Assembly (NCBI GenBank): GCA_964493205.1
Contig: CAZBMJ010000002.1
Location: forward strand, 50,238-114,237
Reading direction: 5' to 3'
Length of the DNA stretch: 64,000 nt
Source of the DNA: an uncultured Myxococcales bacterium
GTDB taxonomy: Bacteria > Myxococcota > UBA727 > JABDBI01
The translations under genes were made by a program, and so were the position numbers. The notes beneath the pieces were generated by a model. The model made no database searches. It was given only the letters and a program-made list of their open reading frames with translations, and had not been told where the DNA came from. The first letter of the stretch is position 1. Every line of letters starts with the position of its first letter. Below are positions 19,955 to 63,509 of this stretch, piece after piece.

Positions 19955-19988
19955 TTATAATAATTTAGAGGTTAATAAAATAAAAATG

Positions 19989-20059
19989 ATGATTTGCTAG
20001 GACTCGAACCTAAACTACAGAACCAAAATTTGTTGCATTACCAGTTATGTTACAAATAA
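19989..20059 (-). tRNA. Degenerate tRNA-like gene, possibly tRNA-Gln (TTG)
   Basis: Minus strand has a canonical T-arm TTAGG-TTCGAGT-CCTAG and an anticodon-loop-like TTTTGGT (T33, G37). The acceptor stem TTATTTG/CAAATCA has one mismatch, and the D and anticodon stems are imperfect. Confidence 0.4.
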
Positions 20060-24784: not shown

Positions 24785-25306
24785 ATGAGAATAGAGCCTA
24801 TTATAAAGGAACTAGAAGAAGTAAAAATAAGACTAAGTAAGTTACAAGATTCTTTAAAAGAGTTTGATGATACTGCTAATAAATATCGTCAACAACTAAT
24901 AATGAAGAGTACTCAATCTGAAAAAGTTATTAAGGTGAAACTTAAATCTCTAAAAATAGATTTTGAATTTCAAAAAATTATAAAAAATAATAAAGCTTTT
25001 AGAATTGTAGATTTTTATTTACCTAAATATAATCTTATTATAGAAGTAGATGGTTTTTATCATTCTGATAATGAACAAAGAGGTAAAGATTTAATAAGAA
25101 CTAATCAATTAGCTGATTTAGGTTACGATAAAATTCTAAGATTAGATAATATAAAAGCTAAAAATATAACAGAAGCTGATTTGTTGAAATTAATTAAATT
25201 AGCTAAGCCTATAAGAAAATCTACAAATAATAAATTACAAAAAATAATAAAATATAAGCAACGTATAGAGCAACTTGAAAAGCTAGTACGAGATTTAAGC
25301 AAATAA
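24785..25306 (+). CDS. Vsr/DUF559-like endonuclease-domain protein with an N-terminal coiled coil
   Basis: AFRIVDFYLPKYNLIIEVDGFYHSDNEQRGKDLIRTNQLADLGYDKILRL matches the ...IExDGxxH...D..R...L..GW.VLR core. Confidence 0.55.
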   Translation: MRIEPIIKELEEVKIRLSKLQDSLKEFDDTANKYRQQLIMKSTQSEKVIKVKLKSLKIDFEFQKIIKNNKAFRIVDFYLPKYNLIIEVDGFYHSDNEQRGKDLIRTNQLADLGYDKILRLDNIKAKNITEADLLKLIKLAKPIRKSTNNKLQKIIKYKQRIEQLEKLVRDLSK

Positions 25307-26229: not shown

Positions 26230-26622
26230 ATGAAAACATATAAACCTTTACCTGATAATCTAACTATTAAACCTAGCTCTATACATGGACTAGGTGTATT
26301 TGCTACAGAAGATATACCACTTCAAAATACTTACGTATTTTTAGGTTATACTCACTACGTAATAGAAGGAACTTTATATAGAGTAAATTATGGTGGATTC
26401 ATTAATCACTCTAATGATCCTAATTGTAAATTATTTCCTATTAGTAAAGAAGAAGATTATGAAGCTTTTCAAATGGTTACAATCAAGGATATTAAAGCAG
26501 GAGAAGAGTTAACCTTAGATTACACAAGGGAGTTATGTGGATTAACAGGATATGAAGATGCTGATTTTTTAAAAGAAGAATTTAAATCATGTTTAAGTGA
26601 TATTGAAAAATATGGATTTTAA
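26230..26622 (+). CDS. SET-domain protein lysine methyltransferase-like (130 aa)
   Basis: GFINHSNDPNCKLF matches the NHSCDPN motif and GEELTLDYT matches the GEELTxDY motif. Confidence 0.7.
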   Translation: MKTYKPLPDNLTIKPSSIHGLGVFATEDIPLQNTYVFLGYTHYVIEGTLYRVNYGGFINHSNDPNCKLFPISKEEDYEAFQMVTIKDIKAGEELTLDYTRELCGLTGYEDADFLKEEFKSCLSDIEKYGF

Positions 26623-26978: not shown

Positions 26979-27256
26979 TGAAAGTAATTGAGATAAGTTT
27001 AGAAGATTATAATAAACTAGAACTTAAACCTATCTTTGAAGAGTTAAACGTTGAGTATGTGTTAGGAGGTTATTATGGATTAACTAAATTAAGAAAAGAA
27101 GAATTCTTTAGTGAATTAGAAATGATTCATATACCTGGTTTTGATAATTCAATGTTCTTCTTTTTAAGAAGGGATATTCCAGGAACTAATCAATCATATA
27201 GTTTAATTCTCTATAGTGGAGTAAATATAGTAGGACATATAAAAATAAAAATATAA
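26975..27256 (+). CDS. Hypothetical protein (93 aa)
   Basis: Complete ORF. Its stop overlaps the start of the vWA gene. Confidence 0.4.
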   Translation: MMKVIEISLEDYNKLELKPIFEELNVEYVLGGYYGLTKLRKEEFFSELEMIHIPGFDNSMFFFLRRDIPGTNQSYSLILYSGVNIVGHIKIKI

Positions 27257-27864
27257 TGAAAACAATTTGTAATTTAATTTTAGTAGATGCATCAGGAAGT
27301 ATGCAAAATAGAGTATCAGATGTTAAAGGTGGTTTAATGAAACTATTCTCTGATATTAAGGAAGAAAAGGAACTTAATCAGCATACTATTGTATGTGATT
27401 TTTCTAATGATTTTAATGTACTCGTTAATACAGTAGATTCTAAGCTTTTAACTTCAGAAATGATAGATAAGTATAAAACTAGAGGATCAACTTCATTATT
27501 TGATGCTATTAAGAAATCATTTGAATTAGTTCCAAAAGGAGTAGATGGTGTATTTGTATCTATTATAACTGATGGAGAAGAAAACTCTTCTGTAGAATGT
27601 AATTCAACTCAAGTAAAACAATTAATATCTTTAGGTAAAGAAAATAAATGGGGTATTACGTTTATGGGGTGTGATGAGAAAGCATTAGATATAGCTAAAT
27701 CCATAGGTATAAATAGTATACTACAATTTGCAGATAATGCATTAGGTTATGAGAAAGCAAGTAAAGAAAGAAGTTTTGCTTATGCAAGTTATACATCTAG
27801 CGTTAAAAAAGCAGTTACATTAGATGAGATTCAATCTGATGATTTATTCACTAAACCAAATTAA
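27256..27864 (+). CDS. von Willebrand factor A (vWA) domain protein
   Basis: MIDAS LILVDASGSMQNR. Then ...STSLFDAI... and ...VSIITDGEEN. Confidence 0.75.
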   Translation: MKTICNLILVDASGSMQNRVSDVKGGLMKLFSDIKEEKELNQHTIVCDFSNDFNVLVNTVDSKLLTSEMIDKYKTRGSTSLFDAIKKSFELVPKGVDGVFVSIITDGEENSSVECNSTQVKQLISLGKENKWGITFMGCDEKALDIAKSIGINSILQFADNALGYEKASKERSFAYASYTSSVKKAVTLDEIQSDDLFTKPN

Positions 27865-43267: not shown

Positions 43268-44971
43268 ATGAGAGTTGTTAATGAAAGATGGCTAATAGCA
43301 GATAAAACCCTAGGGCTTTTTCCTGCAGATCAAGCTATTTTTGTTGAAGTAGGTACAGAGTATGGTTTAAATCCTAATTTAAGGGATAATCAGATTGTTA
43401 TCTACAATGCGGATTCAGGAGTTTCTGTGGGTCCAGGTGTTACAGCAGCTACAGTACCAAACCTAGTTATTGCCCAAGGGATAGATACAGATGGTGATGG
43501 TCATGCTAATGTATTGCGAAAAGTAAATTTTGATAGGATTCCTGCAACAAGTGTATATGCTGCTACAGCAGAACCACCTGCTTGCGGACAAGTTAAAATT
43601 GTAGATGTAGGTATAGGTTGCATGGAAAGAGGTAATTCTTTTACCATGATTATAGAAGCTAGAGACGATCAAACAGAACGTTTCTATAACTATAGAGACT
43701 ATGAAAGATGGACAGAAACAGTAGAATTTAAGTTTGATCCTTGTGATGATTGTGATCAACCTTTAGCTTGTAAAGATGTAGCTTGTGCTCTTGCTAACAA
43801 ATTTAATGGTATAGATAGAAATTACTCTTTGAAGAAAAATCTTTCTTTAATTAAGCGAGTAAGAGAACATCAAGACAAAGATAGACCATTTGATGTATAT
43901 GTTTTACATGAAAATGATTATCAATATTGTTTTGTTACAGCAGATGCAGCTTGTGTAGGTTGTAATACAATAGATGCAATTACAGGTATTACAGTAGATG
44001 TAAACGGAGTAGATGAAACTACTACTACTTTTAGTTTTAGTACAGATCCTTCAGATGACACATTAACAAGAGTACAGCAAATACCTAAAATCATAAAAGC
44101 TATTAATACTGCTTTAGGTGATAAAGGATATGCTTTGGATGCTTCTACCTTTGCAGGTAGTGCTAAACCTTGTTGCGATGGAGTTAAAATTTTAATTAAC
44201 TCTTGCGTAGAAATAGAATTGTTAGGTGATGGAGGTACTCCTATTGTCCCTTGTGATACAGGACTTCCTACCCATACAGTTACTACTCAAGGTGAATGTA
44301 GAGGTTGTGGTACAAGTACTACTGTTACTCCTTGTGCTTTCTTAAGAGTTGTTGCTAAACCTATCAATATTAACAAATATTGTGATAGACCAGATTCTTG
44401 GGAAAAAACTTTGTATACAGATATTAATGTTACTACATCTTACGAGAATAATAACATAGGATTGTTTAAAACTTTTGTTTTCCAAGACTATACTATTCCT
44501 AGAGGACTTGCTTATGAAGTAGCTCATAGAGTTGTTAAACAAGATACATCTCTTAATGAACCATTCTCTTATGGATATGACGAATATTCAGGAAGATATT
44601 TAGGATTTACTCCTGGGTCTAGAACTCCTGCAATGGGTCATGGTGTATTTAAAAATTGTGATAGTTCAGATACATTCTGTATATACAATGTACATTTTGC
44701 TCCTGAAGTAAACAATGGTAGTGCAGCATCAAGAGATAGTAAATTAAACTTTATCTTAAGTATGGGTATTCCTAACAGTAACACTGCTCTTAAAACTTCA
44801 ATAGAAGCTATTATGAATCCGTGGTTAGTATCTATTCCTGGTAAAGCTTTACAAACTATTACTTGTGCTTCTGATCAAGATCAAGTAGAAAGAGTATTAA
44901 ATGCTAGTTATGCTGTAACTACAGCAGAATATGCAGACGCTAACAGAGCTGGTAATTATATTGCTGGGTAA
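43268..44971 (+). CDS. Hypothetical virion structural protein (567 aa); Cys-containing
   Basis: CDDCDQPLACKDVAC and many Cys pairs. Followed by terminator-like hairpin GAAGAG-(N11)-CTCTTC and a T-rich run at ~44981-45017. Confidence 0.4.
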   Translation: MRVVNERWLIADKTLGLFPADQAIFVEVGTEYGLNPNLRDNQIVIYNADSGVSVGPGVTAATVPNLVIAQGIDTDGDGHANVLRKVNFDRIPATSVYAATAEPPACGQVKIVDVGIGCMERGNSFTMIIEARDDQTERFYNYRDYERWTETVEFKFDPCDDCDQPLACKDVACALANKFNGIDRNYSLKKNLSLIKRVREHQDKDRPFDVYVLHENDYQYCFVTADAACVGCNTIDAITGITVDVNGVDETTTTFSFSTDPSDDTLTRVQQIPKIIKAINTALGDKGYALDASTFAGSAKPCCDGVKILINSCVEIELLGDGGTPIVPCDTGLPTHTVTTQGECRGCGTSTTVTPCAFLRVVAKPININKYCDRPDSWEKTLYTDINVTTSYENNNIGLFKTFVFQDYTIPRGLAYEVAHRVVKQDTSLNEPFSYGYDEYSGRYLGFTPGSRTPAMGHGVFKNCDSSDTFCIYNVHFAPEVNNGSAASRDSKLNFILSMGIPNSNTALKTSIEAIMNPWLVSIPGKALQTITCASDQDQVERVLNASYAVTTAEYADANRAGNYIAG

Positions 44972-45038: not shown

Positions 45039-45533
45039 ATGAAGAAGTGTTCCTGTATAATAAATAATAGTTTTAATTTCGTTATAGAATATAAAGAAGA
45101 TTATTTATTATTTATAGATAAAAGTGAATGGACAACTTCAGAATATAATTCTCCTTTAGAAACACATCCTCTAACTATAAAAAACGGAGACAAAACTAAA
45201 ACAATAGATATTAAAGTAGGAGGAACTACTATAATCAAATATTGTGATTTACCTTCAGATAATGGTTGTGGTAATGATGGTATATACGAATTCATAATAG
45301 AAAATTGTGGTGATGTATTTACTAAATGTGAAGCAATACTTATACATATTATGTGTTCTTATACTAAACTATTAGTAAATACTAAATTAGAAAACTACCA
45401 AGATAATATTTGGCCTGTGTTTAGAGAGATAGAATTTATAAAAGCGAATGCTCGCATATGTAATATAACTGACGCAGTAGAACACTACACAATAGTAAAA
45501 AAAATGTTTGAACACTTAAATTGTAAATGTTAA
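45039..45533 (+). CDS. Hypothetical Cys-containing protein (164 aa)
   Basis: Complete ORF. Confidence 0.4.
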   Translation: MKKCSCIINNSFNFVIEYKEDYLLFIDKSEWTTSEYNSPLETHPLTIKNGDKTKTIDIKVGGTTIIKYCDLPSDNGCGNDGIYEFIIENCGDVFTKCEAILIHIMCSYTKLLVNTKLENYQDNIWPVFREIEFIKANARICNITDAVEHYTIVKKMFEHLNCKC

Positions 45534-46107: not shown

Positions 46108-46563
46108 ATGGGTCTTTGTACTTGTACACCAACAGTTCTAAGTCCACCAGCTAGACCGTGCAATAGTAATTGTATCTATGCACCTAATATGCTTGTGGAT
46201 ACAGCTACAGCATGTGAACCAGTAGTTGATATAGATATATCACCTATTGTTGTTGCATGTGGAGATATAACTCCTGTATATAGTATTATTCTAGGAAGTT
46301 TAAAGAATGTAGCGAGTGCAACAATTACTCCTACTACTATAACTTTTATACCTGAAAATAATAACTATGCTACAGGAGAATTAATGTATAAAATTCAATG
46401 TGGAAGACTTTCAGAAGTAGGTAAAATAATCATAGTTTACAAAAACGAATGTGTAGGTATAAATTGTGGTGAATATGAAACTTGTGATAAATGTACAGGA
46501 GATTGTATACCTATACCACCAGAAGTTAGTATCAATAGTACATCTTCTATTTCAATAAATTAA
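46108..46563 (+). CDS. Hypothetical Cys-rich protein (151 aa)
   Basis: Complete ORF. Confidence 0.4.
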   Translation: MGLCTCTPTVLSPPARPCNSNCIYAPNMLVDTATACEPVVDIDISPIVVACGDITPVYSIILGSLKNVASATITPTTITFIPENNNYATGELMYKIQCGRLSEVGKIIIVYKNECVGINCGEYETCDKCTGDCIPIPPEVSINSTSSISIN

Positions 46564-46577
46564 AAATTTAAATAAAA

Positions 46578-48536
46578 ATGCAAATAGGTATTGTAAGAGC
46601 AGAAAATGACCAAGTAATTTGGCCACTTACTATCACTAATGGTCCAACTTCTAATAGTAATGTACAAGTAACATTTACATTACCTTCTGAGATTTCTTTT
46701 AATAATTCTACTATACTTCCTATAGGTTCTTATACAGGAATAGATGTTTGGACTATAGGAGCAATGACTCCTAATCAAGTTATAAATGCAAACATAGTTT
46801 TAAACTTCGATGGTCCTATTGGAGGACTATCTGAAGAATATTCTATAGTTGCTACAGTTACAGGTTTAGGAGATACTAATGGTACAAATAATGTAAAAAC
46901 AGATACTATTCTTTTTGAAGTATCTTCTTGTGATCCACTAGCAAGTGGGTCTAACTGTATTTCAGGACTTAAGTTTGACTTATCAGCTTGTAGTACTCCT
47001 TGTACTCAAGGTGCTACTGCTTTATGGAATATAGTAGCTTTATCAGAAGTTAATATAAATATAATTAGTTTTAATGTAAATACAGGTATAGGATATTATG
47101 AATTTATAGATCCTTCATTACCAGGTTCATTTACATGGGGATTAAGTTGTGTATTAGGATTAGATACAGTTGTTATCTGTTCTACTTATACAATGACACT
47201 TCATCCATTAATAGATGATAAAGATGTTTTTGACCATTCTGCCGATTTTATAGAAGGTTCTACATTAACAGCACCTCAGATAGCTTTATTAAAAGCTCAA
47301 CCTGCATACTCAGGTTTAACAAATGAACAAATCCAAGCATATTGCTGGGAAGCACTTTATAATGCAGATGGAGATTTAGTAGGTGGTTGGGCACACGATT
47401 GTACAGGAGAGCAAGATAGTAGACATTTTATATTTTGCTCAGAAGTTACTTGTGATAATACACCTAATCCATGTCCATCATGTCCATATAGTGATATGCC
47501 TGTAGATGTATCTGCTTATTTAACAAGTATTACAAATTATACTGCTGAGAAAGGAGATTTAATTACAATTTATCACATTGATGCAACTGCTGTATGGGAA
47601 TATAATGGTACAGCATGGGAGAGAACTAGTTGTGGATGTCAATGGAAGATTTCACAAGATGCAGATAATATACTTACATTAGGTACAGATAACGCACCTT
47701 ACTTATCAGATTCAGACTTACCTGTTTTAAATCCTTATCCTGTATCTTTTACAGTAACAGGAACAACAACTAAAACAGCAACAATAACTTTATCTAATGC
47801 AACAGTTCTTACTACTAATTTTACAGATATAGATACAAATACTACATATACTGTTGAAATAAATGATGGTAATATAGAGTTAATAGATCAAATGAACAAC
47901 GTTGTATCTTCAGTTCCTCTTCCTGCAGCAGTAGGAGATGATTGGGGAGTACAAGTTGTAGAACATGATGCTACTATAGCAGGTAATGGAACAGTAGCTT
48001 CTCCACTTACAATAGCTCAACAAGGAGCTACTAATGGACAAGTATTAAAATGGAATACTGCAAGTTCAACTTGGTTACCAGCAAATGATACAGATACAGA
48101 TACAGGAGAAGTAAATACAGCTTCAAATATAGGTGGTGGAGAAGAATTATTTAGTGCAAAAGTAGGAGTAGATTTACAATTTAGAACTCTTGTAGCAGGA
48201 GATAATGTCACAATTACAGAAGTTGGAGATACTTTAGAAATCGAAACATCTTGCGGATGTTGTAATTGTTTTGTAGACACTATTTATGATATAAGTGGTC
48301 CTGAATTACATTTAGTTCAATCAGGAGAGTGTGACAGAATTACAGGAGATATTATATGGCAATCAGCAGATGTTTTTGCTAATCCACCTGTATTTACAAC
48401 TCTTCAAACAGGTGGTTCTACTTATACTTTTATAGGTAGTTTTACAGAAAGAGCTATAAGAATACAATATACAGAGGATGGATGTACTAAATATTCACCG
48501 ATTAGACAAATTGTTGAAACAGTAGCAACACCTTAA
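46578..48536 (+). CDS. Putative tail/fibre-associated structural protein (652 aa)
   Basis: Large Thr/Ser/Gly/Asn-rich protein in the tail region. Confidence 0.4.
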   Translation: MQIGIVRAENDQVIWPLTITNGPTSNSNVQVTFTLPSEISFNNSTILPIGSYTGIDVWTIGAMTPNQVINANIVLNFDGPIGGLSEEYSIVATVTGLGDTNGTNNVKTDTILFEVSSCDPLASGSNCISGLKFDLSACSTPCTQGATALWNIVALSEVNINIISFNVNTGIGYYEFIDPSLPGSFTWGLSCVLGLDTVVICSTYTMTLHPLIDDKDVFDHSADFIEGSTLTAPQIALLKAQPAYSGLTNEQIQAYCWEALYNADGDLVGGWAHDCTGEQDSRHFIFCSEVTCDNTPNPCPSCPYSDMPVDVSAYLTSITNYTAEKGDLITIYHIDATAVWEYNGTAWERTSCGCQWKISQDADNILTLGTDNAPYLSDSDLPVLNPYPVSFTVTGTTTKTATITLSNATVLTTNFTDIDTNTTYTVEINDGNIELIDQMNNVVSSVPLPAAVGDDWGVQVVEHDATIAGNGTVASPLTIAQQGATNGQVLKWNTASSTWLPANDTDTDTGEVNTASNIGGGEELFSAKVGVDLQFRTLVAGDNVTITEVGDTLEIETSCGCCNCFVDTIYDISGPELHLVQSGECDRITGDIIWQSADVFANPPVFTTLQTGGSTYTFIGSFTERAIRIQYTEDGCTKYSPIRQIVETVATP

Positions 48537-49280: not shown

Positions 49281-51251
49281 ATGACAGACTTAAATATAGA
49301 AAAAAGATTAAAAAAACTTGAGAGACAACTTTGCTGTATAGACAAAGAAGTACAATTTTTTGATACCTTTGGTGATTTTCCACTAACAGGTTCAGAAAAT
49401 AATTTATATGTAGATAATTCTACAGGTGATATTTATATCTGGGATGGGGCGGCTTACATTACTACAACAGATTCAGATAGATTTCATACAAACATAGTAG
49501 GAGTTGCTGATTATAATAGTGGTTTACCATTAACAGGGTGGACAGCACCAGCATTATCTACAAATGGAGATACAGTAAGTGTACTATTTACAGATAATGT
49601 AATAGGTAATTATACATTTATGGGTGGAGTGTGGGTGCTAAATTATATTGAAGAACAAGAAGCTTTAAACGGTTTAAGAATACTTGCTACAGGAGAAGCT
49701 GTAAGGGGTTCGGATAGTTCATCTGATGCCAAAGGCTCTGCATTGACAGCCGCTACATATAACCACTTAAACTCATTTTCAGATAATTGGGTACAAGGAG
49801 GCACGTCAATTTTTAGTATATTTCCAACAGCTAATTCTGTAAATAGAATAGTGACTATACAAAACGGTGATTTGGAAGTCAACGGGATTCGAGTGGGTAA
49901 AAGTAAAGGGAATAGAGCAAATAATACGGTGGTTGGTGGTTTATCCTTAGAATCAATTACAACGGGAGATTATAATACTGCTATAGGTTTTGCATCTATG
50001 TATAATACTACAACAGGAGGTTTTAATACAGTATTTGGAGTAAGGGCATTACAGTTAAACGTTAGTGGTTCAGGAAATCAGGCGTTTGGTGATTTTGCAG
50101 GGTATGGTGCAACAGGTTCAAACAATATAGCTATAGGGTCATCTGCCTTATATCAAAACACTGGGTCTACTAATATAGCTATTGGTAGGGGAGCAATGTA
50201 TAACGGAACTGGAAATAATAGTATTGCTATTGGGTTAAATTCTATGCAAAATAGTACGGCAAATAATAATATTGGGGTTGGAAATTTATCTATGAGGTTA
50301 AACACCACAGGATATTACAATACCGCAATAGGTCACAACAGTTTAGAGAATAACACAACAGGGTTTTTAAATACTGCTATTGGTTATTATTCAATGGTTA
50401 ACAACACAACAGGTACGCTCAATACAGCTGTTGGTGCTTCAACATTATTTGATAATACTACTGGAAGTGAAAATACTGCAATTGGTAGGGAGAGTAGCAG
50501 GAACAATACTACTGGCAATAGTAATGTATCAGTTGGTTATTTCTCAAACACAAATAATTCTACAGGAGACAATAACGTAGCTCTTGGGGTAGCGGCTATG
50601 CTTAACGCTAATGGTAGCTCCCGTCAAACAGCAGTAGGTAGAAATGCCCTTATATTAAGTACTCTAGGTTTTGAAAATACTGCAATAGGCTACAATACAT
50701 TGTGGAATTTAAGGGCAGGTTGTGATAATAATACTGTTTTAGGTACATTTGCGGGGGAAAGTATAGGAGCAATAGTATTTGCAGGAAACATAATACCAGG
50801 AAACACATATACAATTCAAACAGTTGGAACTTCAGATTTTACATTAATTGGTTCTCCAGACAATATCGTAGGAACAACTTTTGTTGCATCAGGACCAACC
50901 CCAGGAACAGGTTATGTATATCCAGAATATGTATCAAATAATAATACCCTTGTAGGACACAGTGCAGGAATTAATCTACGTGAAGGTGAAGCGAATACTG
51001 TTATAGGTGCTAACATCCAAGTACCGAATGCTTTTACTAATAATCATGTAGTTATAGGTGATGGAGATGGTAACGTTAGAATGATAACTAATGATTTAGG
51101 AGACACCACATTTACAGGTACAGGAGCTATAACAGTTCCTGTTGGAGACACAGCACAACAACCAGCAACTCCAGTAACAGGAATGATGAGATTTAACACT
51201 GATGGTCCAAGGATGGAATATTATGATGGAACTGTATGGGTGCCTTTTTAA
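49281..51251 (+). CDS. Tail fibre protein with ~13 tandem NTAIG-type repeats
   Basis: YNTAIGFASMYNTTTGGFNTVFG...NIAIGSSALYQNTGSTNIAIGRGAMYNGTGNNSIAIG...NTAIGHNSL...NTAIGYYSM... The C-terminus MMRFNTDGPRMEYYDGTVWVPF resembles fibre-tip folds. Confidence 0.55.
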   Translation: MTDLNIEKRLKKLERQLCCIDKEVQFFDTFGDFPLTGSENNLYVDNSTGDIYIWDGAAYITTTDSDRFHTNIVGVADYNSGLPLTGWTAPALSTNGDTVSVLFTDNVIGNYTFMGGVWVLNYIEEQEALNGLRILATGEAVRGSDSSSDAKGSALTAATYNHLNSFSDNWVQGGTSIFSIFPTANSVNRIVTIQNGDLEVNGIRVGKSKGNRANNTVVGGLSLESITTGDYNTAIGFASMYNTTTGGFNTVFGVRALQLNVSGSGNQAFGDFAGYGATGSNNIAIGSSALYQNTGSTNIAIGRGAMYNGTGNNSIAIGLNSMQNSTANNNIGVGNLSMRLNTTGYYNTAIGHNSLENNTTGFLNTAIGYYSMVNNTTGTLNTAVGASTLFDNTTGSENTAIGRESSRNNTTGNSNVSVGYFSNTNNSTGDNNVALGVAAMLNANGSSRQTAVGRNALILSTLGFENTAIGYNTLWNLRAGCDNNTVLGTFAGESIGAIVFAGNIIPGNTYTIQTVGTSDFTLIGSPDNIVGTTFVASGPTPGTGYVYPEYVSNNNTLVGHSAGINLREGEANTVIGANIQVPNAFTNNHVVIGDGDGNVRMITNDLGDTTFTGTGAITVPVGDTAQQPATPVTGMMRFNTDGPRMEYYDGTVWVPF

Positions 51252-55278: not shown

Positions 55279-56058
55279 ATGATTGAAAATAAGTTATCAG
55301 AACTAGGAAAATTAAATAAAAAATCTTTATATTATAATTTACCTTATAATACTACTAAAGATTTAAATTTAATATTATTAAGTTATGCAAATACATCTTG
55401 TTTAGATTCAGAAGAACTATCTGTATATAAGAATTATATAAAAAAATTAACATTTGATTGTACTACTAGTAAGCCTACATTGTTTGTTAATAGTGTAAAT
55501 AAATCTATATGGGAAGAAAATAATCCTGAATGTGTAAATAGAAAGCAATGGGAAAAAATTGCTTTAAAAATTTGTAATAAGTATACAATAGAAATAGAAA
55601 AAATACCTTTAGATACTGTATGTGATATTTCTTTTGAAATAGTTAAAAAAACAATATCTTGTGAAGTTTTAACCACAATAGCTCTACAAAAAAAGCTATG
55701 TGATTTAAATATAACTATAAATAGAACTAAAGATGAATGTGCTACAGATTATAAACTTCTGATAGAAAAATATCCATCTTGTAATTTAAATAAAAAAGAA
55801 TACTTCTGTCTTATAGATAGTAACTTCTCATTTGAAATGGTATCATTAATCTACGATAATAATCTTAGTTTAGAAGTAGATTCCAAAGGCAAGGTAACTC
55901 TTATATCTCCTATAAGACGTTATAAAATACCTGATGAGTTAAAAGTAAATGATGTTATTTATACATCAGATAAACAATTCATTCATAAAATATTACAAGA
56001 CTATAATATATCTAAAAAAACTAAAGAAAATATAATAAATGAACTCAAACAAATATGA
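55279..56058 (+). CDS. Hypothetical Cys-containing protein (259 aa)
   Basis: Complete ORF. Overlaps the start of the giant gene by 20 nt. Confidence 0.4.
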   Translation: MIENKLSELGKLNKKSLYYNLPYNTTKDLNLILLSYANTSCLDSEELSVYKNYIKKLTFDCTTSKPTLFVNSVNKSIWEENNPECVNRKQWEKIALKICNKYTIEIEKIPLDTVCDISFEIVKKTISCEVLTTIALQKKLCDLNITINRTKDECATDYKLLIEKYPSCNLNKKEYFCLIDSNFSFEMVSLIYDNNLSLEVDSKGKVTLISPIRRYKIPDELKVNDVIYTSDKQFIHKILQDYNISKKTKENIINELKQI

Positions 56059-59000
56059 GATTAGGATACGTGCTACCGTAAATGGTGTAGAAAAAGTTCC
56101 TAGCAAAATCACATGGATACAAGGTAATGATGAATGTTTAGCTACCCCTTGTTATAAAGAAAATGATTATTTAGTAGTTAAACTAATACCCGACTGTGTA
56201 GGTAATGCCTGTATAGAAGGGTATTTGCATTTTGATGATACGTGCACCAATTGTGAACCAGAGCATTTTAAAAGATGTTTTTGTAATACAGATGCTGATT
56301 GTCCTGATTGCTCTCAATGTGATGAGAATTATGGTATTTGTGTAGATCAATGTAAAGAAGGAGAATTCTGTAAAGATGATGCTTGTATAGAGTGTGATGA
56401 GAATACTCCTTGTCCTAATAATCAAATATGTATTAATGGTCATTGTGAATGTCCACCTAATATGTTTAAAGATGGTAATAGATGTGTTGAATGTACTTCT
56501 ACTACTAATTTAGGTAAATGTTTTGAATGTATTAATGGAGTTATTACTCCTAAATGCGATAAAGCATGTATTGAGCTTACAGGAGAATGTGTTGATTGTA
56601 TAGGTTCAGGAGATTGTTTAGATAGAACAGATGGTAAAAACTGTTGTTCTGATAATCAATGTGATTGTTGTAATGGTTTTGAATGGGATAATCTTCTTAA
56701 ACAATGTGTACCATCTTGTAATGAAACTACTTGTAATGAGTGTGAGAGATGTACTAAAGATGGTTGTCAACCAATACAATGTCCTGAAGGATATAAGTGT
56801 TATAAAGGTGAATGTGTATATTGGCCTTGTGAATCTGTATCTTGTGATAATGGAGCAGAATGTGGTCCAGAATGTGGATGTGTAGAGTTTGAAGGTGTTA
56901 AACAGTGTGTACCTTGTTATATATTAGAATGTAATGGTTTGTGTGAACAAGCATTAGGTTGTAAATGTAATGGTACAAAATGCGAATCTTCAGATAATTG
57001 TAAGGAAACTTATTGTGATAATGAGAACCCTTGCGAAGATCCTAATTGTACATGTTATGATAATAAATGTGTAGATTGTTCTAACTTTCCTTGTGTAGAT
57101 GAGGGTGGTTGCTCAAGCTATGATAATTGTGGATGTAACGAAGATAATAAATGCGAAGGTACTGGTTGTGAAGGTGGTTTAACTCTTAAAAAAGAGGAAG
57201 ATTGTACTTCTACTACAGGGTGTAAATTAAAAGCAGAGTTTTCTGTAAAAGCATGTAAATGCGATCCTATAGTATTTAAAACTAAAAATACAGTAACTTG
57301 TACATCAACTAGTGATGCTATAACTCTAAAAGTAGAATTGTTTAAAAAAGTAAATGGAGCAGATATTCCTTATAGTTCTTATAAGACTTCTCCTTATTTT
57401 GCTGATGATGAATTAGTTTCTACACAAATAAGAACTGTAGCAGAATACCAATATCTTAAAGATGGTAAATTCTACTCTTATAGTGGTACAGTGGTTACTT
57501 CTCCTATGCCTTCTACAGGTATTATGAATAATGTTATATCAAACTTAGTACTTAATAGTTCTCACATTAAGAAAACTATTACAGTAGGTGGAGTTTCTTA
57601 TCCTGCTAAAGTAACTATTAAAGTGTTTGCTGATGCAACTAAAATTCAGAATGCTAATTGTACTAAATACGAATCTACAGCTAAGATTGCTGAATATGTT
57701 TTAGACTACAGTTCAGCTCTAGCAACAACAGACACATGTAATAAAATAAATACTACATATAAAACAGAACAAGTTATTTCTGTTATAGACGATAAATCTG
57801 CTAAAAGACCTAGATTTACTTGGTATAGATCTAATACTTCTACTTTTGAAGATGATGAGTTTATATATGATGGTACATATAACGAGAGTGGATGGTTTAG
57901 AAAATCATTTGGTACTTTAGTAAGTGGTAAATGGATAGATGAAATAAATAATACAGCTAAATTTGAAGATAATTCTAAAGGTGAATTACTTTCTAATTAT
58001 AATTATTTAGTTAAAGCTGATTGTGGTTGTGGAACTAAAGTTGATAGTTTACAGAAAGTACATTTCTGTTGTCCTAAAGATTTTACATATACAATAACTC
58101 CTTGTGATAAAAAAATAGTAATTAATCCGTTTTCAGTATGTTCTATAAATGATACATTACCTACTAGTTATAGTATACCAACTGAATGTCAAGTAAAATA
58201 TAACTTAGAAGTTCTTTTAGATTCAGGAGCTGTAATTAAAAGTCAACTTCCAAAATCTGGTTTAACTAAAACATATCCAGATGCAATTGTATCTGCTAAA
58301 ATTATACAATTTAATTCAGGAGGTATATTAACAGAAGAAGATTATTGTACTTTTATGTTAACTGTACCAGAAGTAACTTTACCTACTCCAACAATTACTG
58401 TTGATTGTAATTCAGTTACTGATAAGTTTAGAGTTACTTTTACTCAAACTAGTCCTTTAAATATAGATAAAGTTGAAGTATTAGCAAATGGTATTAAACT
58501 TACTCCAGAGATTTTTAAAACAACTCCTGGGTTAACTGCTCTATATGATAAAACAATATCTAATAGTCACTTACCTACAGGAGAAGATCCGCAAGGAAGA
58601 GTTAGTGGAGTAATTGTAAAATTACAAGCTAGAGTAACATTTAGTAATGGTTGTAGTAAAATTATAGATTTAACTCCATGTAATCCTTCATTAACTGTAA
58701 CAGAGAATCCTTCAGGAGCAACTTCTAGGTTAAATTGTCCTCAAGGAGGTCAAGGTGTAGAATTAGATTCTTACTTAGAAGGATTTGATATGTCTCAACC
58801 TGTATTATTTACTATATCAGGTGGTACATTAACTGAACCTCTTACTAATGGTACAGGTACATTTACAAATTTAGGAGCAGGTACTTATACAGTAGTTGCT
58901 ACTCAAGGAGCTTTAACATCAACAGCAACTAAAACTATATTTGATGCTACTGCACCTACTGTAACTTTAACTTCTAGTATATGTCCAGGTGAAACAGGTA

Positions 59001-61156
59001 CATTAACTATTACTGCACCAGCAGGTTCTATATTTAGTGTTATGGGTCCAACAGGTTCTATATCTATACCTCCAATACCTCAATCAGGAGTATATAATAT
59101 AACAGGATTAACAGCTTCAGGTACATATACTATAACAGGAGGTATAGATAATAATAATCAAACATGCTATCCTTTTACTTGGACTGGTAATATGGTATTA
59201 GGTGGTCAAGTATTAAATCCTATATTTTCTCCTATAGCATATGGAAATTATTGTGTAGATATACCTATAGAAATTAGTATTATAGACGGTGTAAATGGTA
59301 AAATTTATAATATTGCAGCTATTTCTGGTTATATAACAGATCAAGCAGGTAATAATGTAACTCAAATGATTTCTGGTCAAACATATTTTTATACACCTAC
59401 TTCTATAGGAAGTAATGCTGTACAAATTATAAGTATAGATAGTACTTGTGATACTTTGTTAACAACACCAGTTACTAGAACTTTTATTACAATAGTACCT
59501 GCACCTAATGTATCTAATATTGTAGTGCAATGTGTAGATGGTTTATATAATGTATCTGCAACAGTAACAGTTTCTTCTGGCACTATATCTAGCGTTTTAA
59601 TATCTGGTATACCAGCTACAAATATAGGTTCTACTTATTCTGTAACAGGAGTACCTTATGTAGAAAATTTAATAGCTACAAGTTCTAACGGATGTATATA
59701 TCAAGCTATATTACCAATCGCAAACTGTAACTGTCCATCAGCTACATTAACAATAACTGGACCTATAGTACCTTTATGTGGTGATCAATTAATTACATTA
59801 ACTGCATTACCTCAATTAAATCCTAATATTGCAACAGGAGCTTGGACATATCAATGGTATGATGCAGGCCCTCCAAATTGTAATAACTGTACACCTTTAG
59901 CAATAGGTGCTCAAGGTTCTTGGGGTTCTCAACCTGTAGAATTAGTAGTAAATGCTAGTGGTAGCGGTTCATATTTTTTAAGAGTTATTAATAACTTAAA
60001 TCCTGAATGTACTTATACAAGTAATACTTATTCTTATACAGTAGATAATCCACCAGCTACACCAATTATACAACATACTCCAACAAACATAACTGTTGGT
60101 AATTCTGTAACATTTAATACTGGATATTCTAATTATTCAACGTATGCATGGTATTTAAATGGTGGAACAACGCCTGTATCAACAAATTCTACATATACTT
60201 TTACACCTACACTCTCAGGTAATTATACTATATCAGTAACTGTTAGTAATGGAAATTCTTCATGTACTGCAACTGCTTCAGACTCTTTTGAAGTTACTTC
60301 TGAATGTAATAAAATAGGAATTTTTAACGTTACAAATCCAAATACAACTTGTCCTACACAAGCTACTGTAAATTTAACTAATCCTGATAATATCTCTTTT
60401 AATTGGGTAATAGTTGCTGTAAATGAACTTACTACTAGTGATTTAGTAGGTTTAACAGGTAGTGGTACAGGTAATAGTTTTACTTTTGATTTAACAACAC
60501 CTAATACAGATCCAGGAGAGGATATAGATAATATAAGTTTTGTATTTAGTTATACTCTTATAGGAAATGAAGACTGTACACAACCACCAATTACTATACC
60601 TTGGGAGTATACTAGATGTGATAAAGGACCTGTTGATTTAATGTTAGATAATACAAGTACTTGGAGAGATATTTTTGCTACTGATTATACATTAGCTAGT
60701 TTAATATCTACTGAAACATTAGTATTTTTAACAGATATTACTATTAATACTAAAATAGGTAATAATAATACAGTGAGTAATAAAATATACTCAAATTCTG
60801 GTTCAGCTTCTCCAGAACACGAATATAGATTATATCATGATCATGCAACTACTGGTTGTACAGGAATAGATGATGATGCTAAATTTAAAACTGCGGTTGA
60901 TTCTTGGTTTGGTACTAGTAGAACAGTAACATCAACAATTGCAGATTTAGTAATAACAGTTCAAAATAGATTAAATGCTATACCAATATTATCTGGTATT
61001 GTTGTAAGTAATTCTAGTGGTAATTTAAGATTTAGTAATGTTCCTTGTGAAGTTCAACAAATAGTAGGTACAGTATTTTATACAAATTCTACAGATTGTG
61101 TATTTACTGATATTGAAAAGAAAAATGCTAGTCAATATGTTATTCCTTCTTGTTAA
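56039..61156 (+). CDS. Giant cysteine-rich repeat protein (1705 aa), probably a tail fibre or adhesin
   Basis: The N-terminal ~400 aa consist of dense CxxC/CxC EGF- or furin-like cysteine repeats (CECPPNMFKDGNRCVEC, CDCCNGFEWD...). The remainder is Thr/Ser/Gly/Asn-rich with beta-domain-like repeats (Ig-like segments). Confidence 0.5.
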   Translation: MNSNKYEIRIRATVNGVEKVPSKITWIQGNDECLATPCYKENDYLVVKLIPDCVGNACIEGYLHFDDTCTNCEPEHFKRCFCNTDADCPDCSQCDENYGICVDQCKEGEFCKDDACIECDENTPCPNNQICINGHCECPPNMFKDGNRCVECTSTTNLGKCFECINGVITPKCDKACIELTGECVDCIGSGDCLDRTDGKNCCSDNQCDCCNGFEWDNLLKQCVPSCNETTCNECERCTKDGCQPIQCPEGYKCYKGECVYWPCESVSCDNGAECGPECGCVEFEGVKQCVPCYILECNGLCEQALGCKCNGTKCESSDNCKETYCDNENPCEDPNCTCYDNKCVDCSNFPCVDEGGCSSYDNCGCNEDNKCEGTGCEGGLTLKKEEDCTSTTGCKLKAEFSVKACKCDPIVFKTKNTVTCTSTSDAITLKVELFKKVNGADIPYSSYKTSPYFADDELVSTQIRTVAEYQYLKDGKFYSYSGTVVTSPMPSTGIMNNVISNLVLNSSHIKKTITVGGVSYPAKVTIKVFADATKIQNANCTKYESTAKIAEYVLDYSSALATTDTCNKINTTYKTEQVISVIDDKSAKRPRFTWYRSNTSTFEDDEFIYDGTYNESGWFRKSFGTLVSGKWIDEINNTAKFEDNSKGELLSNYNYLVKADCGCGTKVDSLQKVHFCCPKDFTYTITPCDKKIVINPFSVCSINDTLPTSYSIPTECQVKYNLEVLLDSGAVIKSQLPKSGLTKTYPDAIVSAKIIQFNSGGILTEEDYCTFMLTVPEVTLPTPTITVDCNSVTDKFRVTFTQTSPLNIDKVEVLANGIKLTPEIFKTTPGLTALYDKTISNSHLPTGEDPQGRVSGVIVKLQARVTFSNGCSKIIDLTPCNPSLTVTENPSGATSRLNCPQGGQGVELDSYLEGFDMSQPVLFTISGGTLTEPLTNGTGTFTNLGAGTYTVVATQGALTSTATKTIFDATAPTVTLTSSICPGETGTLTITAPAGSIFSVMGPTGSISIPPIPQSGVYNITGLTASGTYTITGGIDNNNQTCYPFTWTGNMVLGGQVLNPIFSPIAYGNYCVDIPIEISIIDGVNGKIYNIAAISGYITDQAGNNVTQMISGQTYFYTPTSIGSNAVQIISIDSTCDTLLTTPVTRTFITIVPAPNVSNIVVQCVDGLYNVSATVTVSSGTISSVLISGIPATNIGSTYSVTGVPYVENLIATSSNGCIYQAILPIANCNCPSATLTITGPIVPLCGDQLITLTALPQLNPNIATGAWTYQWYDAGPPNCNNCTPLAIGAQGSWGSQPVELVVNASGSGSYFLRVINNLNPECTYTSNTYSYTVDNPPATPIIQHTPTNITVGNSVTFNTGYSNYSTYAWYLNGGTTPVSTNSTYTFTPTLSGNYTISVTVSNGNSSCTATASDSFEVTSECNKIGIFNVTNPNTTCPTQATVNLTNPDNISFNWVIVAVNELTTSDLVGLTGSGTGNSFTFDLTTPNTDPGEDIDNISFVFSYTLIGNEDCTQPPITIPWEYTRCDKGPVDLMLDNTSTWRDIFATDYTLASLISTETLVFLTDITINTKIGNNNTVSNKIYSNSGSASPEHEYRLYHDHATTGCTGIDDDAKFKTAVDSWFGTSRTVTSTIADLVITVQNRLNAIPILSGIVVSNSSGNLRFSNVPCEVQQIVGTVFYTNSTDCVFTDIEKKNASQYVIPSC

Positions 61157-61812
61157 AAAATAAATTAATGGAATTTAATACACAAAATACACCTCAACCA
61201 GAGGTAAAAACAGAAACTAAAGTAGAAGAGAGAGTAATTCTCTCTTCTTCTTCTGTATCTAATGTAGAAGTTTTATCTAATAGCGTAAAAGTTGATACAG
61301 TAGACAAGAGTAGAGACACTATTACAGTCACTCATGATGTAACGGCTCTTACTTCTTCTTATACCAAAGATAACATTAAGTCATCTTTAGTCAATGTTTA
61401 TGGTTCATCAGGTAAACTTTATTCATCTCCTCGAAATATAGAATCAGTGGATATTCCTAAATCTGAATATCCCATTAGATTAGAGTACACATTTATTACT
61501 CAGGATGCTACTGGCATTCAATCTGAGTACACTACTTCATATAATGTACCTCTTACTACCAACACTACTCTTTTAAGTCCTACAGGAGCTTCTACATCAT
61601 CTAATAAAGAGATGTCTGTTAGTGAAGCAATTAAGGTTTTAGATGATGATATGTTAAAAATAAAAAATAATTTGCAAAATTTTTCGTTTTTATATGATAA
61701 TAGTCAAAAAAAAGTTGTAACTTTGCAGAGTTATTTAATGAACATAACTTCACAATTAGAAACTATAACTAAAGAGCTAGCAGATGTTAAACAAAAAACT
61801 CAAGACTTGTAG
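61150..61812 (+). CDS. Hypothetical Ser/Thr-rich protein (220 aa)
   Basis: Complete ORF. Its ATG overlaps the end of the giant gene. Confidence 0.4.
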   Translation: MLKNKLMEFNTQNTPQPEVKTETKVEERVILSSSSVSNVEVLSNSVKVDTVDKSRDTITVTHDVTALTSSYTKDNIKSSLVNVYGSSGKLYSSPRNIESVDIPKSEYPIRLEYTFITQDATGIQSEYTTSYNVPLTTNTTLLSPTGASTSSNKEMSVSEAIKVLDDDMLKIKNNLQNFSFLYDNSQKKVVTLQSYLMNITSQLETITKELADVKQKTQDL

Positions 61813-62305
61813 TACTTGCAAACAACAACGTGTATTGTGGCGAGGAACAGAATGTAAGGCTTGTAGTAGTAAACAACCTGCTAAAACTAAAAAAGAACCT
61901 AAGAAAAAACTAACACCTATATCTAAGCTTAAAAAAGATGCTAGATACTGGTTTCAGCGTTGGATTAGACTAAGAGACTTAGGTAAACCTTGTTGTTATG
62001 GAACTCATACTAAACTAGAAGATATACGTTATTATGATGCTTGTCACTACTTAAAGTTTGAGTTATATCCAGAAGCAGGTTTTGATGAGGATAATGTCTT
62101 TGGAGGCTCTAAGGGAGAGAATATAAGAGACAATGTAATAGGTTATAGAAGACATTTAGTAAAGACTAAAGGTGAAGAGTGGGTTAAAGCAATAGAAGAT
62201 AAATACTGTTCTAATAGACAAACACAATTTAAATGGAACAGAGAATATTTAGAAAACATTATAACAGAGTATAAAGCTCGATGTAAACAAATAGAAAGTA
62301 AATAG
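61784..62305 (+). CDS. NinG/Rap-like recombination endonuclease
   Basis: ARYWFQRWIRLRD..KPCCYGTHTKLEDIRYYDACHY resembles the lambda NinG core RSYWIKQAQ...LPCISCGTLTSAQWDAGHY. N-terminal CxxC...CxxC. Confidence 0.55.
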   Translation: MLNKKLKTCSTCKQQRVLWRGTECKACSSKQPAKTKKEPKKKLTPISKLKKDARYWFQRWIRLRDLGKPCCYGTHTKLEDIRYYDACHYLKFELYPEAGFDEDNVFGGSKGENIRDNVIGYRRHLVKTKGEEWVKAIEDKYCSNRQTQFKWNREYLENIITEYKARCKQIESK

Positions 62306-62324
62306 AAATTTTAAACAAACAATT

Positions 62325-63509
62325 ATGAATTTTAGAGAGAATTTTTTAAATGAACTAAGAACAGGTAGAGTCATAAAAGGAGACAAAACCTTTAGGGAGT
62401 TAGCAATTATGTTTAATTATCCTGATGATAACGGAGATAATTTATGTAAGAAAGATTATTACAGATTTTTAAAGAATAATCATGAGAAAGCAGCAATAAA
62501 AGCTGTAGAAGGATCTACACTAAATAATAGAGATAATTCTAAAAGTGTTCCAGATCTACAAAAATTTAACTTGTCATCTTTTAAAATAAACAAAGATGGA
62601 GAAGTTTGTGATCAATGGTACAGAACTCAAGGTGAAGTATTAGACTCATCTTTAGATTTAGCTTCCATCAAAGAAGAATTATTAGCAGAAGTTACACCTA
62701 TTAAAACCAAAAGAGATATTAAAAATGGTAAAACATTAATATTGTGGTTAGGTGATGCTCATATAGGTATGAATTTAGATTTAGATTCCCCTATTGCTAA
62801 GAAAACATTATCTTTTAAAGATAGTTTATTAAAAACATCCTCACTAATTAATGAAAACTACGAAGAAGTAGTTGTAGTATATGGTGGAGATATGACAGAT
62901 TCTTATAATAACTATACTTCTAGAGGTGGACATTCATTAGCATCTTCATTAACAGATAGAGAAATGTTTAAAGAATTTATAAGTTCTAGTAAAACATTTT
63001 TTACATCTTTAGTTAATAATGAAAATATAGGTAATATATCATTTTATTCTGTAGGAGAAGATAATCATACAGGTAGTCTTGCAGGTATTTTTTCAGAATC
63101 ATTAGAATTATGGTTAAATACTAAATATCCTGATATAAAAACAGAAGTATTTGAAGAAAATGTAGGATTTTTTAATAAAAGAGGGCATAATTTTATAGTT
63201 ACTCATGGTAAAGATAAAAAAGAAATGTTTAAAAATCTACCTTTAGTCTTAGATCCTAAAACAGAAACTTATATGTGTAGTTTAGCTATGTATAAAAATA
63301 TACCTTTAAACTATAAAACAACACATATATATAAATTTGATTTACATCAATTTAGTTCGCAGATAGGAAGATTTTTTACATATACTAACTGCTTAGCTAT
63401 GCAAGTAGGAAGTAAATGGCAACAACATAACTTTATGTCTTCTATACCAGGAATTACTTATTCAGTAGTTACTAATGATGTAATATCTAATGCTAATTTA
63501 TTTTTATAA
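62325..63509 (+). CDS. Calcineurin-like metallophosphoesterase
   Basis: LWLGDAHIG matches GDxHG. VVVYGGDMTD matches GD. GEDNHTG matches GNH(D/E). Confidence 0.55.
   Translation: MNFRENFLNELRTGRVIKGDKTFRELAIMFNYPDDNGDNLCKKDYYRFLKNNHEKAAIKAVEGSTLNNRDNSKSVPDLQKFNLSSFKINKDGEVCDQWYRTQGEVLDSSLDLASIKEELLAEVTPIKTKRDIKNGKTLILWLGDAHIGMNLDLDSPIAKKTLSFKDSLLKTSSLINENYEEVVVVYGGDMTDSYNNYTSRGGHSLASSLTDREMFKEFISSSKTFFTSLVNNENIGNISFYSVGEDNHTGSLAGIFSESLELWLNTKYPDIKTEVFEENVGFFNKRGHNFIVTHGKDKKEMFKNLPLVLDPKTETYMCSLAMYKNIPLNYKTTHIYKFDLHQFSSQIGRFFTYTNCLAMQVGSKWQQHNFMSSIPGITYSVVTNDVISNANLFL

Follow-up and report, generated by a model that had tools for sequence, protein, structure and literature searches.

A giant cysteine-rich protein of an uncultured crAss-like phage as a candidate virion fibre or adhesin with an exchanged distal module

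In the crassvirus crAss001, the gene block equivalent to the one considered here encodes fibre, spike and hub proteins that are found in virions (PMC10172136), and in the equivalent block of phage phi14:2 fibre and spike proteins have been verified by mass spectrometry. Cryo-electron microscopy of the crAss001 virion has shown that its tail hub, ring proteins and gp57 contain structural disulfides (PMC10172136). Furthermore, PKD/Ig proteins of gut phages, those of Crassvirales included, mediate non-host adhesion (PMC13370021). Here, a giant gene is described that encodes a protein of 1705 amino acids and lies in a stretch of 64,000 nucleotides (hereafter the window; positions 50,238 to 114,237 of contig CAZBMJ010000002.1, assembly GCA_964493205.1, catalogued as an uncultured Myxococcales bacterium). 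The protein begins with a region extremely rich in cysteine (Cys), continues into a string of PKD/Ig-like domains and ends in a variable tip, and it is a candidate host-recognition fibre or adhesin of an uncultured crAss-like phage. The gene and its parts are as follows (window coordinates).

56039..61156, + strand: giant gene, ATG start, 1705 codons plus stop (open reading frame (ORF) listing and translation)
56039..56218, + strand: N-terminal beta-strand domain, residues 1-60, the proposed virion-attachment end
56219..57268, + strand: Cys-rich stalk, residues 61-410, with ~68 Cys and ~13 consecutive short beta-hairpins
57269..58678, + strand: conserved beta-rich region, residues 411-880, with motifs GWFRK, NYNY..DCGC and FCCP
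58679..60619, + strand: PKD/Ig-like beta-sandwich array, residues 881-1527, ending at the family-wide YTRC motif
60056..60295, + strand: PKD domain PF00801, residues 1340-1419, the only domain above its curated Pfam threshold
59816..61153, + strand: distal module, apparently recently exchanged, from ~codon 1260 to the end, ~450 residues
60620..61153, + strand: variable alpha/beta tip, residues 1528-1705 (178 residues), the proposed ligand-binding end

The window is judged from its genes to be part of an uncultured Crassvirales-like phage genome of ~139 kb, because the ORF at 39899 (512 residues) matches Pfam Crass_capsid (8.3e-41) as the major capsid protein (MCP), PHROGs for terminase and portal are matched by the ORFs at 33731 and 36064, and the large terminase subunit (TerL) finds its best match among GenBank phages in Cellulophaga phage phi14:2 (32% identity). 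A major-head PHROG match is also present, and the next-best TerL matches are Flavobacterium and Bacteroides crAss-like phages. The host probably belongs to Bacteroidota, going by these relatives and by one member of the giant-protein family that was binned with a Vicingus metagenome-assembled genome. An identical protein (P0001) is encoded on a 138,768-bp NCBI contig.

On the + strand, TerL, portal and MCP are followed by a Big_2 protein, a baseplate-connector-like protein, a tailspike-like protein and an M15 peptidase (endolysin), and then by small ORFs, a 259-residue partner ORF, the giant gene, NinG and an exonuclease, after which the window ends. In the collinear locus of the closest relative (L009, 73% identical overall to the giant protein), CrAss_Ring_2, CrAss_Ring_1 and a 1991-residue, muzzle-sized ORF lie beyond NinG and the exonuclease; the ring and muzzle genes were seen in L009, and in the phage of the window they fall past the window end. 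Elsewhere, the giant gene stands a few genes past the capsid gene (L003) or directly before the ring genes (L002). Its place is the virion morphogenesis block, with fibre and lysis genes on one side and ring and muzzle genes on the other.

The earlier note on this DNA, made from the letters alone, had reported a 1705-residue ORF at 56039-61156 with dozens of Cys in its first ~400 residues and a remainder rich in Thr, Ser, Gly and Asn with repeated beta domains, and these descriptions hold. The ORF is present exactly as given. The protein has 108 Cys overall, 70 of them within residues 1-400, and the motifs CDCC and CECPPN that had been singled out lie at residues 208-211 and 136-141. Residues 30-410 contain 18.9% Cys, with 11 CxxC and 8 CxC motifs, 73 Asp plus Glu against 30 Lys plus Arg, and only three His. 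Other ORFs of the window (G+C content 28.3%) have 0.5-2.4% Cys. In the 1295 residues after the Cys-rich part, Thr, Ser, Gly and Asn together make up 38%, and the repeated beta domains are of the PKD/Ig type. Neither a signal peptide nor a transmembrane segment was found in the protein (maximum Kyte-Doolittle 19-residue mean 1.35).

The Cys-rich region is shared by a large family. Among 5.8 billion proteins, a word-seeded search retrieved 79 homologues, with few exceptions 1350-2100 residues long and almost all of metagenomic source; none has a functional name, and family members with a source name are all labelled 'hypothetical'. The Cys profile is common to every homologue, with ~60-90 Cys over the initial ~425 aligned residues and 54 Cys columns conserved in at least 95% of the 79, and the same columns are near-invariant across 203 sequences clustered at 50% identity. 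When an N-terminal profile was run against 1.84 billion cluster representatives, it matched at least 387 clusters (50% identity) at an E-value (E) of 1e-3 or lower, with non-family matches possible among the 237 weaker ones, and 233 clusters at 1e-30 or lower. In each of the 150 best of these 387 clusters, the Cys module begins at about residue 1 of a protein of mostly 1200-2300 residues. The ratio of non-synonymous to synonymous substitution rates (dN/dS) of the Cys-rich region against L009 is 0.13, which denotes strong purifying selection. Because of this constraint and the conserved Cys columns, the region is, on comparative evidence, a selected protein domain and no accident of composition.

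Described phages yielded no further members. Neither megablast nor tblastn found a family member in 50,697 GenBank phage records, and PHROGs gave no match for the Cys-rich N-terminus, in agreement with the earlier remark that it is unusual for phage virion proteins. Local hmmsearch with family profiles had no match in a six-frame translation of phi14:2 and of the 50-kb structural region of crAss001, the two crassviruses characterised by structure or proteomics. Pattern-seeded scans of 185,579 GTDB species genomes with two pattern sets found no relative and so offer no hint of a host; IMG/VR contributed two contigs that are related, 110 and 122 kb long. The family was encountered on phage-like contigs only, and the search for other architectures with the Cys module recovered nothing but truncated proteins or fragments that belong to this family.

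The distal part of the protein evolves differently. Identity to the family is 0.42-0.57 over the first 400 residues, 0.2-0.3 in the middle and 0.07-0.14 at residues 1551-1700, and the tip is common to only 5 of 80 homologues. At ~codon 1260, nucleotide identity to L009 jumps from 0.65-0.87 to 0.91-0.96, and synonymous divergence (dS) falls from 0.6-0.9 to 0.04-0.26. Because the flanking genes are only 75-77% identical to those of L009, these two changes indicate that related phages traded the distal ~450 residues not long ago. In this exchanged stretch, the tip differs from that of L009 by 23 non-synonymous and 5 synonymous changes (dN/dS ~1.3), compared with 36.5 and 40.5 in the adjacent 300 codons (Fisher p = 0.0017 against the tip). 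A conserved proximal end, a chain of beads and a mobile, fast-changing head are the classic behaviour of a receptor-binding fibre.

Between the stalk and the tip, residues 411-880 are aligned by 60-66 of the 80 homologues at a dN/dS of 0.34-0.49 and have no Pfam or NCBIfam match. In the array that follows, a family profile searched against the Protein Data Bank (PDB) matched, at positions ~850-1450, the PKD domains of KIAA0319L (3.8e-8), T4 Hoc (1.4e-4) and CEACAMs, and internal repeats tie residues 915-1000, 1012-1043 and 1108-1130 to 1362-1455. The PKD match itself (residues 1348-1413) reached E 1.2e-5 and 25.6 bits with a cutoff of 23.5; PKD_3 and PKD_4 fell slightly under their cutoffs, and the 'CHU_C associated' domain Ig_7 gave a weak match (E 0.025). 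The whole protein and four pieces of it had only PKD-type matches in Pfam, NCBIfam and PHROGs. Searches of the PDB with the protein, the family profile and the N-terminal profile found PKD/Ig domains only, plus non-significant TIL, EGF and CXXC matches. The tip was modelled as a globular alpha/beta domain and recovered no further homologues when used as a query. A different distal end was observed in a subgroup of shorter members of ~1350-1400 residues (P0047, P0049, P0053, P0056, P0057, P0059 and P0062-P0064), whose last ~200 residues are again Cys-rich, at 10-17 Cys per 100 residues; it looks like an alternative distal module that replaces the alpha/beta tip.

The position in the virion block, the gradient of conservation from N- to C-terminus, the exchanged distal module and the tip rich in non-synonymous changes together argue for a virion fibre or adhesin anchored by its N-terminus, with a disulfide-rich stalk, PKD/Ig beads and an exchangeable tip that would recognise the host surface (probability roughly 0.55). 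A host-recognition fibre or adhesin had been proposed in the earlier note; as a role it fits these four lines of evidence, from which we infer, rather than observe, membership of the virion and recognition of a host.

Several points weigh against this reading. Placement on the virion is deduced from gene order and sequence, and in the window the giant gene follows the endolysin and adjoins NinG and the exonuclease, so that the argument from gene order is weakened if the window is taken by itself. The dN/dS of the tip is not significantly greater than 1 (p = 0.81), and the tip resembles no known receptor- or carbohydrate-binding domain and has no recognisable fold relative. Pfam and PHROG searches detected no beta-helix, triple beta-spiral, coiled coil, collagen, phage_fiber repeat or intramolecular chaperone. 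Moreover, the reading offers no explanation for how ~35 specific disulfides could arise in a reducing cytoplasm, where the protein is made; no ORF of at least 60 residues within the 64-kb window has a motif of the thiol-oxidase or thioredoxin type (C[GPA][PHY]C), and the pairwise co-variation of Cys that points to such bonds can be inflated by shared ancestry.

Many of the same features could belong to a capsid (head) fibre or decoration protein, docked by its N-terminus in a hexon pocket and using its beads and tip for weak, general adhesion, and this, though rather unlikely, is the main rival reading. The crAss001 head fibres gp21 and gp29, from the same gene block, bind via N-terminal residues 1-38 and 1-58 (PMC10172136), and the matches of the family profile to T4 Hoc and to PKD domains, together with the non-host adhesion by gut-phage PKD/Ig proteins (PMC13370021), suit such a role; however, fast exchange and diversification of a specific tip are more typical of host-range determinants. 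Strings of Ig- or EGF-like beads are typically monomeric, whereas tail fibres are trimeric, but many copies of a decoration protein of 1705 residues would be very costly. Gene order is divided, since the giant gene lies close behind the capsid block in L003 but near the ring and muzzle genes in L002 and L009.

The fibre or adhesin reading includes a disulfide-rich stalk, and the chemistry of its Cys was approached through evolutionary co-variation, a statistic open to the inflation mentioned above. Variable Cys co-occur in pairs, namely 19-65 (44/44), 117-134 (18/18), 127-148 (5/5), 202-211 (45/45) and 158-169 (23/24), each with its own phyletic distribution. The pair 88-101 co-occurs in 67 of 67 sequences and is replaced jointly by Leu/Ile, with C91, C94 and C105 staying invariant where this happens. 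Among the 203 sequences, 58-80, 88-101 and 232-243 are reciprocal best partners in co-loss; co-loss is weaker for 72-105, both being missing in four of the seven sequences that lack either. Larger indels take out Cys in even-numbered blocks. Because variable Cys come and go in pairs and His is nearly absent, there is strong circumstantial evidence that the stalk Cys are disulfide partners rather than four-ligand metal sites.

Chelation of metal by these Cys, as in a zinc ribbon or knuckle or a metallothionein, would allow the protein to fold in the reducing cytoplasm, which the missing signal peptide requires. It could draw on the 11 CxxC motifs, some of them knuckle-spaced (e.g., C149xxC152-x8-C161xxC164), and on a weak family-profile match to the CXXC zinc-finger chain 4hp1 (E 0.45). 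However, the Cys vary by twos and not by fours, the hydrophobic replacement of 88-101 occurs beside invariant Cys, the region has only its three His and no zinc-finger Pfam match, and its nearest structural neighbours are disulfide-rich extracellular repeats. Disulfides are also documented in crassvirus tails (PMC10172136), and metal binding is on these grounds improbable.

Elevated Cys content extends beyond the giant gene, at 2.4% in the virion ORFs after the MCP compared with 1.2% in the first 33 kb (mostly non-virion) and 0.5% in the head genes, and disulfides may be in general use throughout the tail or fibre apparatus of this phage. Post-capsid ORFs on the + strand with 3.1-7.9% Cys were observed at 43268-44971, 45039-45533, 46108-46563 and 46578-48536; the third of these (151 residues) has 12 Cys, including the stretch CVGINCGEYETCDKCTGDC.

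A bolder claim is that a widespread environmental crAss-like clade builds a fibre stalk of ~350 residues with ~30-35 native disulfides, followed by Ig beads and a globular head in the style of matrix proteins, independently of eukaryotes and without a secretory pathway. We put this forward tentatively, as somewhat doubtful. If it is true, a cytoplasmic phage protein would need a novel oxidative-folding route: the conserved, translationally coupled and Cys-containing partner could be devoted to its folding or oxidation, or the oxidation step could be timed after lysis. The tip would, in that event, be a new receptor-binding fold.

That the giant protein is not on the virion surface at all, and is either internal cargo for ejection (cf. 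crAss001 gp45) or a protein released at lysis, is very improbable. Crassviruses do package very large cargo proteins whose genes lie near those of the tail (PMC10172136), but the giant protein has no similarity to crAss001 proteins and a cross-linked rod with Ig beads could not unfold through the tail channel. The order of lysis gene, giant gene and DNA-metabolism genes in the window would suit this idea, whereas an N-to-C gradient, exchange of the tip and PKD/Ig domains, as seen here, are what characterises exposed binding proteins.

For the N-terminal end of the proposed fibre, an AlphaFold2 model of residues 1-440 was built with a 78-sequence alignment. It has a mean predicted local distance difference test (pLDDT) score of 80, mostly 80-93 in the stalk, and a predicted template modelling score (pTM) of 0.42, which is low as expected of a rod shape. 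It contains no helix except one four-residue turn, and ~13 two-stranded hairpins are modelled between residues 92 and 374. In residues 1-60, strands were predicted at 6-10, 12-14, 17-19, 23-28, 39-41 and 44-49 (pLDDT 58-72), and relatives that are only ~57% identical in the Cys-rich region reach 68-80% identity in this segment. By analogy with the N-terminal docking of crAss001 fibres (PMC10172136), residues 1-60 are proposed to attach the protein to the virion.

The stalk is read, on this model, as a disulfide-pinned rod of the EGF/furin/TNFR-like fold class. Foldseek ranked NELL2 EGF1-6 first (E 0.012, probability 0.41), followed by Delta-like 1, megalin and Jagged2, and also returned HER3 (E 0.44), TNFR2 (E 2.8) and the FU repeats of R-spondin-2 (E 3.1); none of these is significant, and TM-scores were 0.2 or lower, the elongated and flexible model limiting a fold search. 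Pfam had nothing for residues 1-420 at E up to 10, and NCBIfam nothing. In 24 diverse members, Pfam found no EGF (cut-off E up to 1), EGF_CA, Laminin_EGF, Furin-like, TNFR or VSP domain, and only a sporadic EB module (two members) and DPY module (one member) in their N-termini. The N-terminal profile had non-significant PDB matches near residues 208-223 to a TIL-type inhibitor (E 0.11) and the Pvs25 EGF (E 1.3). At the same residues there is a single exact match to the PROSITE-style EGF_2 pattern (C-x-C-x2-[GP]-[FYW]-x4-8-C), here in the form C-x-C-x2-G-F-x8-C, which occurs in 40 of 81 members with a chance expectation of 0.05. The co-varying pairs 58-80, 72-105 and 88-101 interleave; the canonical bonding of a six-Cys EGF module is 1-3, 2-4, 5-6, and assigning the pairs to it would take coordinates. 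The EGF- or furin-like character suggested in the earlier note therefore stands as a resemblance of fold class only, seen in the top Foldseek matches, and not as family membership, for which significant sequence or structure matches are lacking. As the outcome that would refute it, that note had named a standard phage fibre fold with no Cys-repeat homology; the searches found neither a standard trimeric fibre fold nor significant Cys-repeat homology.

Acquisition of the region from a eukaryote as a true EGF/furin homologue, possibly binding a eukaryotic surface, is hardly credible: although the best Foldseek matches are all animal proteins of EGF/furin/TNFR type, the EGF_2-type signature lies at residues 208-223, and weak matches of the profile to TIL and Pvs25 EGF as well as scattered EB and DPY modules occur, none of these matches is significant, the 24 members lack EGF/furin/TNFR-type Pfam domains, the module sits at residue 1 of a giant phage-type protein in the best 150 of 387 clusters, the pattern-seeded GTDB scans had no match, and the G+C content of 28% and the codon usage match the phage. 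Because the Cys module was encountered only at the N-terminus of phage proteins and was also not found in the GTDB scans, an origin independent of eukaryotic repeats is the simpler reading.

If the protein is a fibre or adhesin, it could work as follows. The N-terminal beta domain of ~60 residues would dock the chain on the virion, the tail collar being the likelier site, and the co-translated upstream partner may take part in docking. Residues ~61-410 would form a stiff rod, resistant to proteases and shear, of ~13 hairpins with ~30-35 disulfides; hairpins and paired Cys were computed, and the bonds themselves are presumed from them. The ~470 residues of conserved beta structure and then the PKD/Ig string, so named from profile matches, would lengthen the reach. 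The 178-residue tip would bind a ligand on the host surface, probably a glycan or a surface protein, and its exchange and diversification among phages would tune host range; the exchange and the non-synonymous excess themselves were computed.

The upstream partner of the giant gene is the following ORF.

55279..56058, + strand: partner ORF, 259 residues with 10 Cys, its 3' end sharing 20 nt with the beginning of the giant gene

A homologue of the partner lies directly upstream of the giant gene in L002, L003, L007 and L009. A Cys-containing homologue (~200-320 residues) is always upstream, and overlaps or nearly abuts the giant gene in most of the loci examined. In L004 and L005 the partner is also upstream, set apart only by an inserted GIY-YIG/NUMOD3 homing-endonuclease ORF; these two ORFs (L004, 7280-8008, 242 residues; L005, 3344-4048, 234 residues) are 52% identical to each other. 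The partner has no match in Pfam, PHROG or NCBIfam, and it could be an adaptor, a hub, or an assembly or folding factor. Homology to a tail hub was tried with hhalign against crAss001 gp23-gp46 (hub, ring and auxiliary proteins) and gained no support, all probabilities being below 1%.

Within the giant gene, a reading frame on the opposite strand was also considered.

56183..56443, - strand: antisense ORF, not a gene, 86 residues with an Ile/Thr-rich, low-complexity translation

The earlier note had already dismissed it, and it is rejected here too: L009 has no stop-free antisense stretch there, and the stop-free antisense stretches of other homologues differ in position. By its composition it is spurious, an Ile/Thr-rich reverse reading of Cys, Asp and Asn codons.

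Downstream, ~70 nt past the stop of the giant gene, a perfect stem-loop of 11 bp with a T-rich tract behind it (61224-61248, + strand) falls in the 5' part of the next ORF and could be a terminator or an attenuator. The start of that ORF is ambiguous, either TTG at 61150 or ATG at 61168, the latter as in the identical Logan contig. In a scan for sigma-70 promoters, shuffled sequence gave more sites than the DNA itself, this type of scan being unsuited to Bacteroidota promoters. The NinG/Rap-like junction endonuclease and the exonuclease (61784-63509, + strand) are DNA-metabolism genes set within the morphogenesis block. Upstream of the packaging genes, the + strand encodes a DUF559/PvuRts1I-like endonuclease (24785-25306, 1.8e-10) and a VWA_2 (von Willebrand factor A) protein (27256-27864, 3.4e-6). 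An ORF of 130 residues (26230-26622, + strand) has a SET domain (Pfam PF00856, E 4.9e-14), the fold of eukaryote-type protein lysine methyltransferases, here in a crAss-like phage. Two tRNA genes, tRNA-His (GTG) at 14622-14696 and tRNA-Gln (TTG) at 19988-20059, are on the - strand.

If the fibre or adhesin reading is true, a large unannotated family of virion fibres, with at least 387 clusters at 50% identity, would exist in uncultured crAss-like phages, an order with very few cultured members, and with the N-terminal profile, giant 'hypothetical proteins' could be annotated by the hundreds in viromes. Dense, disulfide-pinned mini-hairpins are familiar in animal extracellular proteins, and no report of them in phage particles was found in the libraries searched. 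They raise the biochemical question of how a protein made in the bacterial cytoplasm comes to have ~35 specific disulfides. The swappable tip module (from ~codon 1260 or from the YTRC boundary at residue 1527) suits studies of host-range evolution, and the rigid, modular scaffold is of possible interest to protein engineers.

Among known systems, the fibres of crAss001 (gp22 of the tail; gp21 and gp29 of the head) and the fibres and spikes of phi14:2 come from the same order and the same capsid-to-ring/muzzle block. N-terminal docking is plausible here as well, and the crAss001 tail is disulfide-stabilised (PMC10172136). However, they have no sequence similarity to the giant protein (tblastn and a local profile hidden Markov model), the large structural proteins of both phages contain at most 1.7% Cys and no Cys-repeat stalk, and their fibres carry enzymatic or tailspike-type domains (polygalacturonase, pectate lyase). 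[quoted passage not shown] Hoc, at 376 residues, is bound to the capsid via its C-terminal domain and has neither a Cys-rich region nor an exchangeable tip, whereas the giant protein is 4.5 times longer and is conserved at its N-terminus and least conserved at its C-terminus.

The EGF, laminin-EGF, FU and TNFR repeats of animals resemble the stalk as rods of small beta-hairpins with 6-8 Cys per ~25-40 residues, in their CxC/CxxC spacing and in the motifs G-x-C-x-C-P and C-x-C-x2-G-[FYW]. In contrast, the modules of the giant protein are shorter and irregular, and are made without a signal peptide in the bacterial cytoplasm. Tenascin, the closest analogue at the level of the whole protein, runs from an assembly end through Cys repeats and beta-sandwich repeats to a globular head. 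By analogy only, the plan of the giant protein appears to converge on that of animal matrix and adhesion proteins such as tenascin, convergence being more likely than descent. Bacteroidota adhesins (CHU_C, Ig_7 associated with the type IX secretion system (T9SS)) have similar beta-sandwich repeats and come from the phylum of the probable host, but the giant protein lacks both their signal peptide and a T9SS C-terminal domain. No description of the family was found in the literature on Cys-rich or EGF-like phage virion proteins. Phage fibres or adhesins that contain Ig-like domains are already known as a kind, and what is new is the Cys-knotted stalk of ~350 residues, the conserved partner gene and the unassigned fold of the tip, in a family whose unnamed giant members number in the hundreds.

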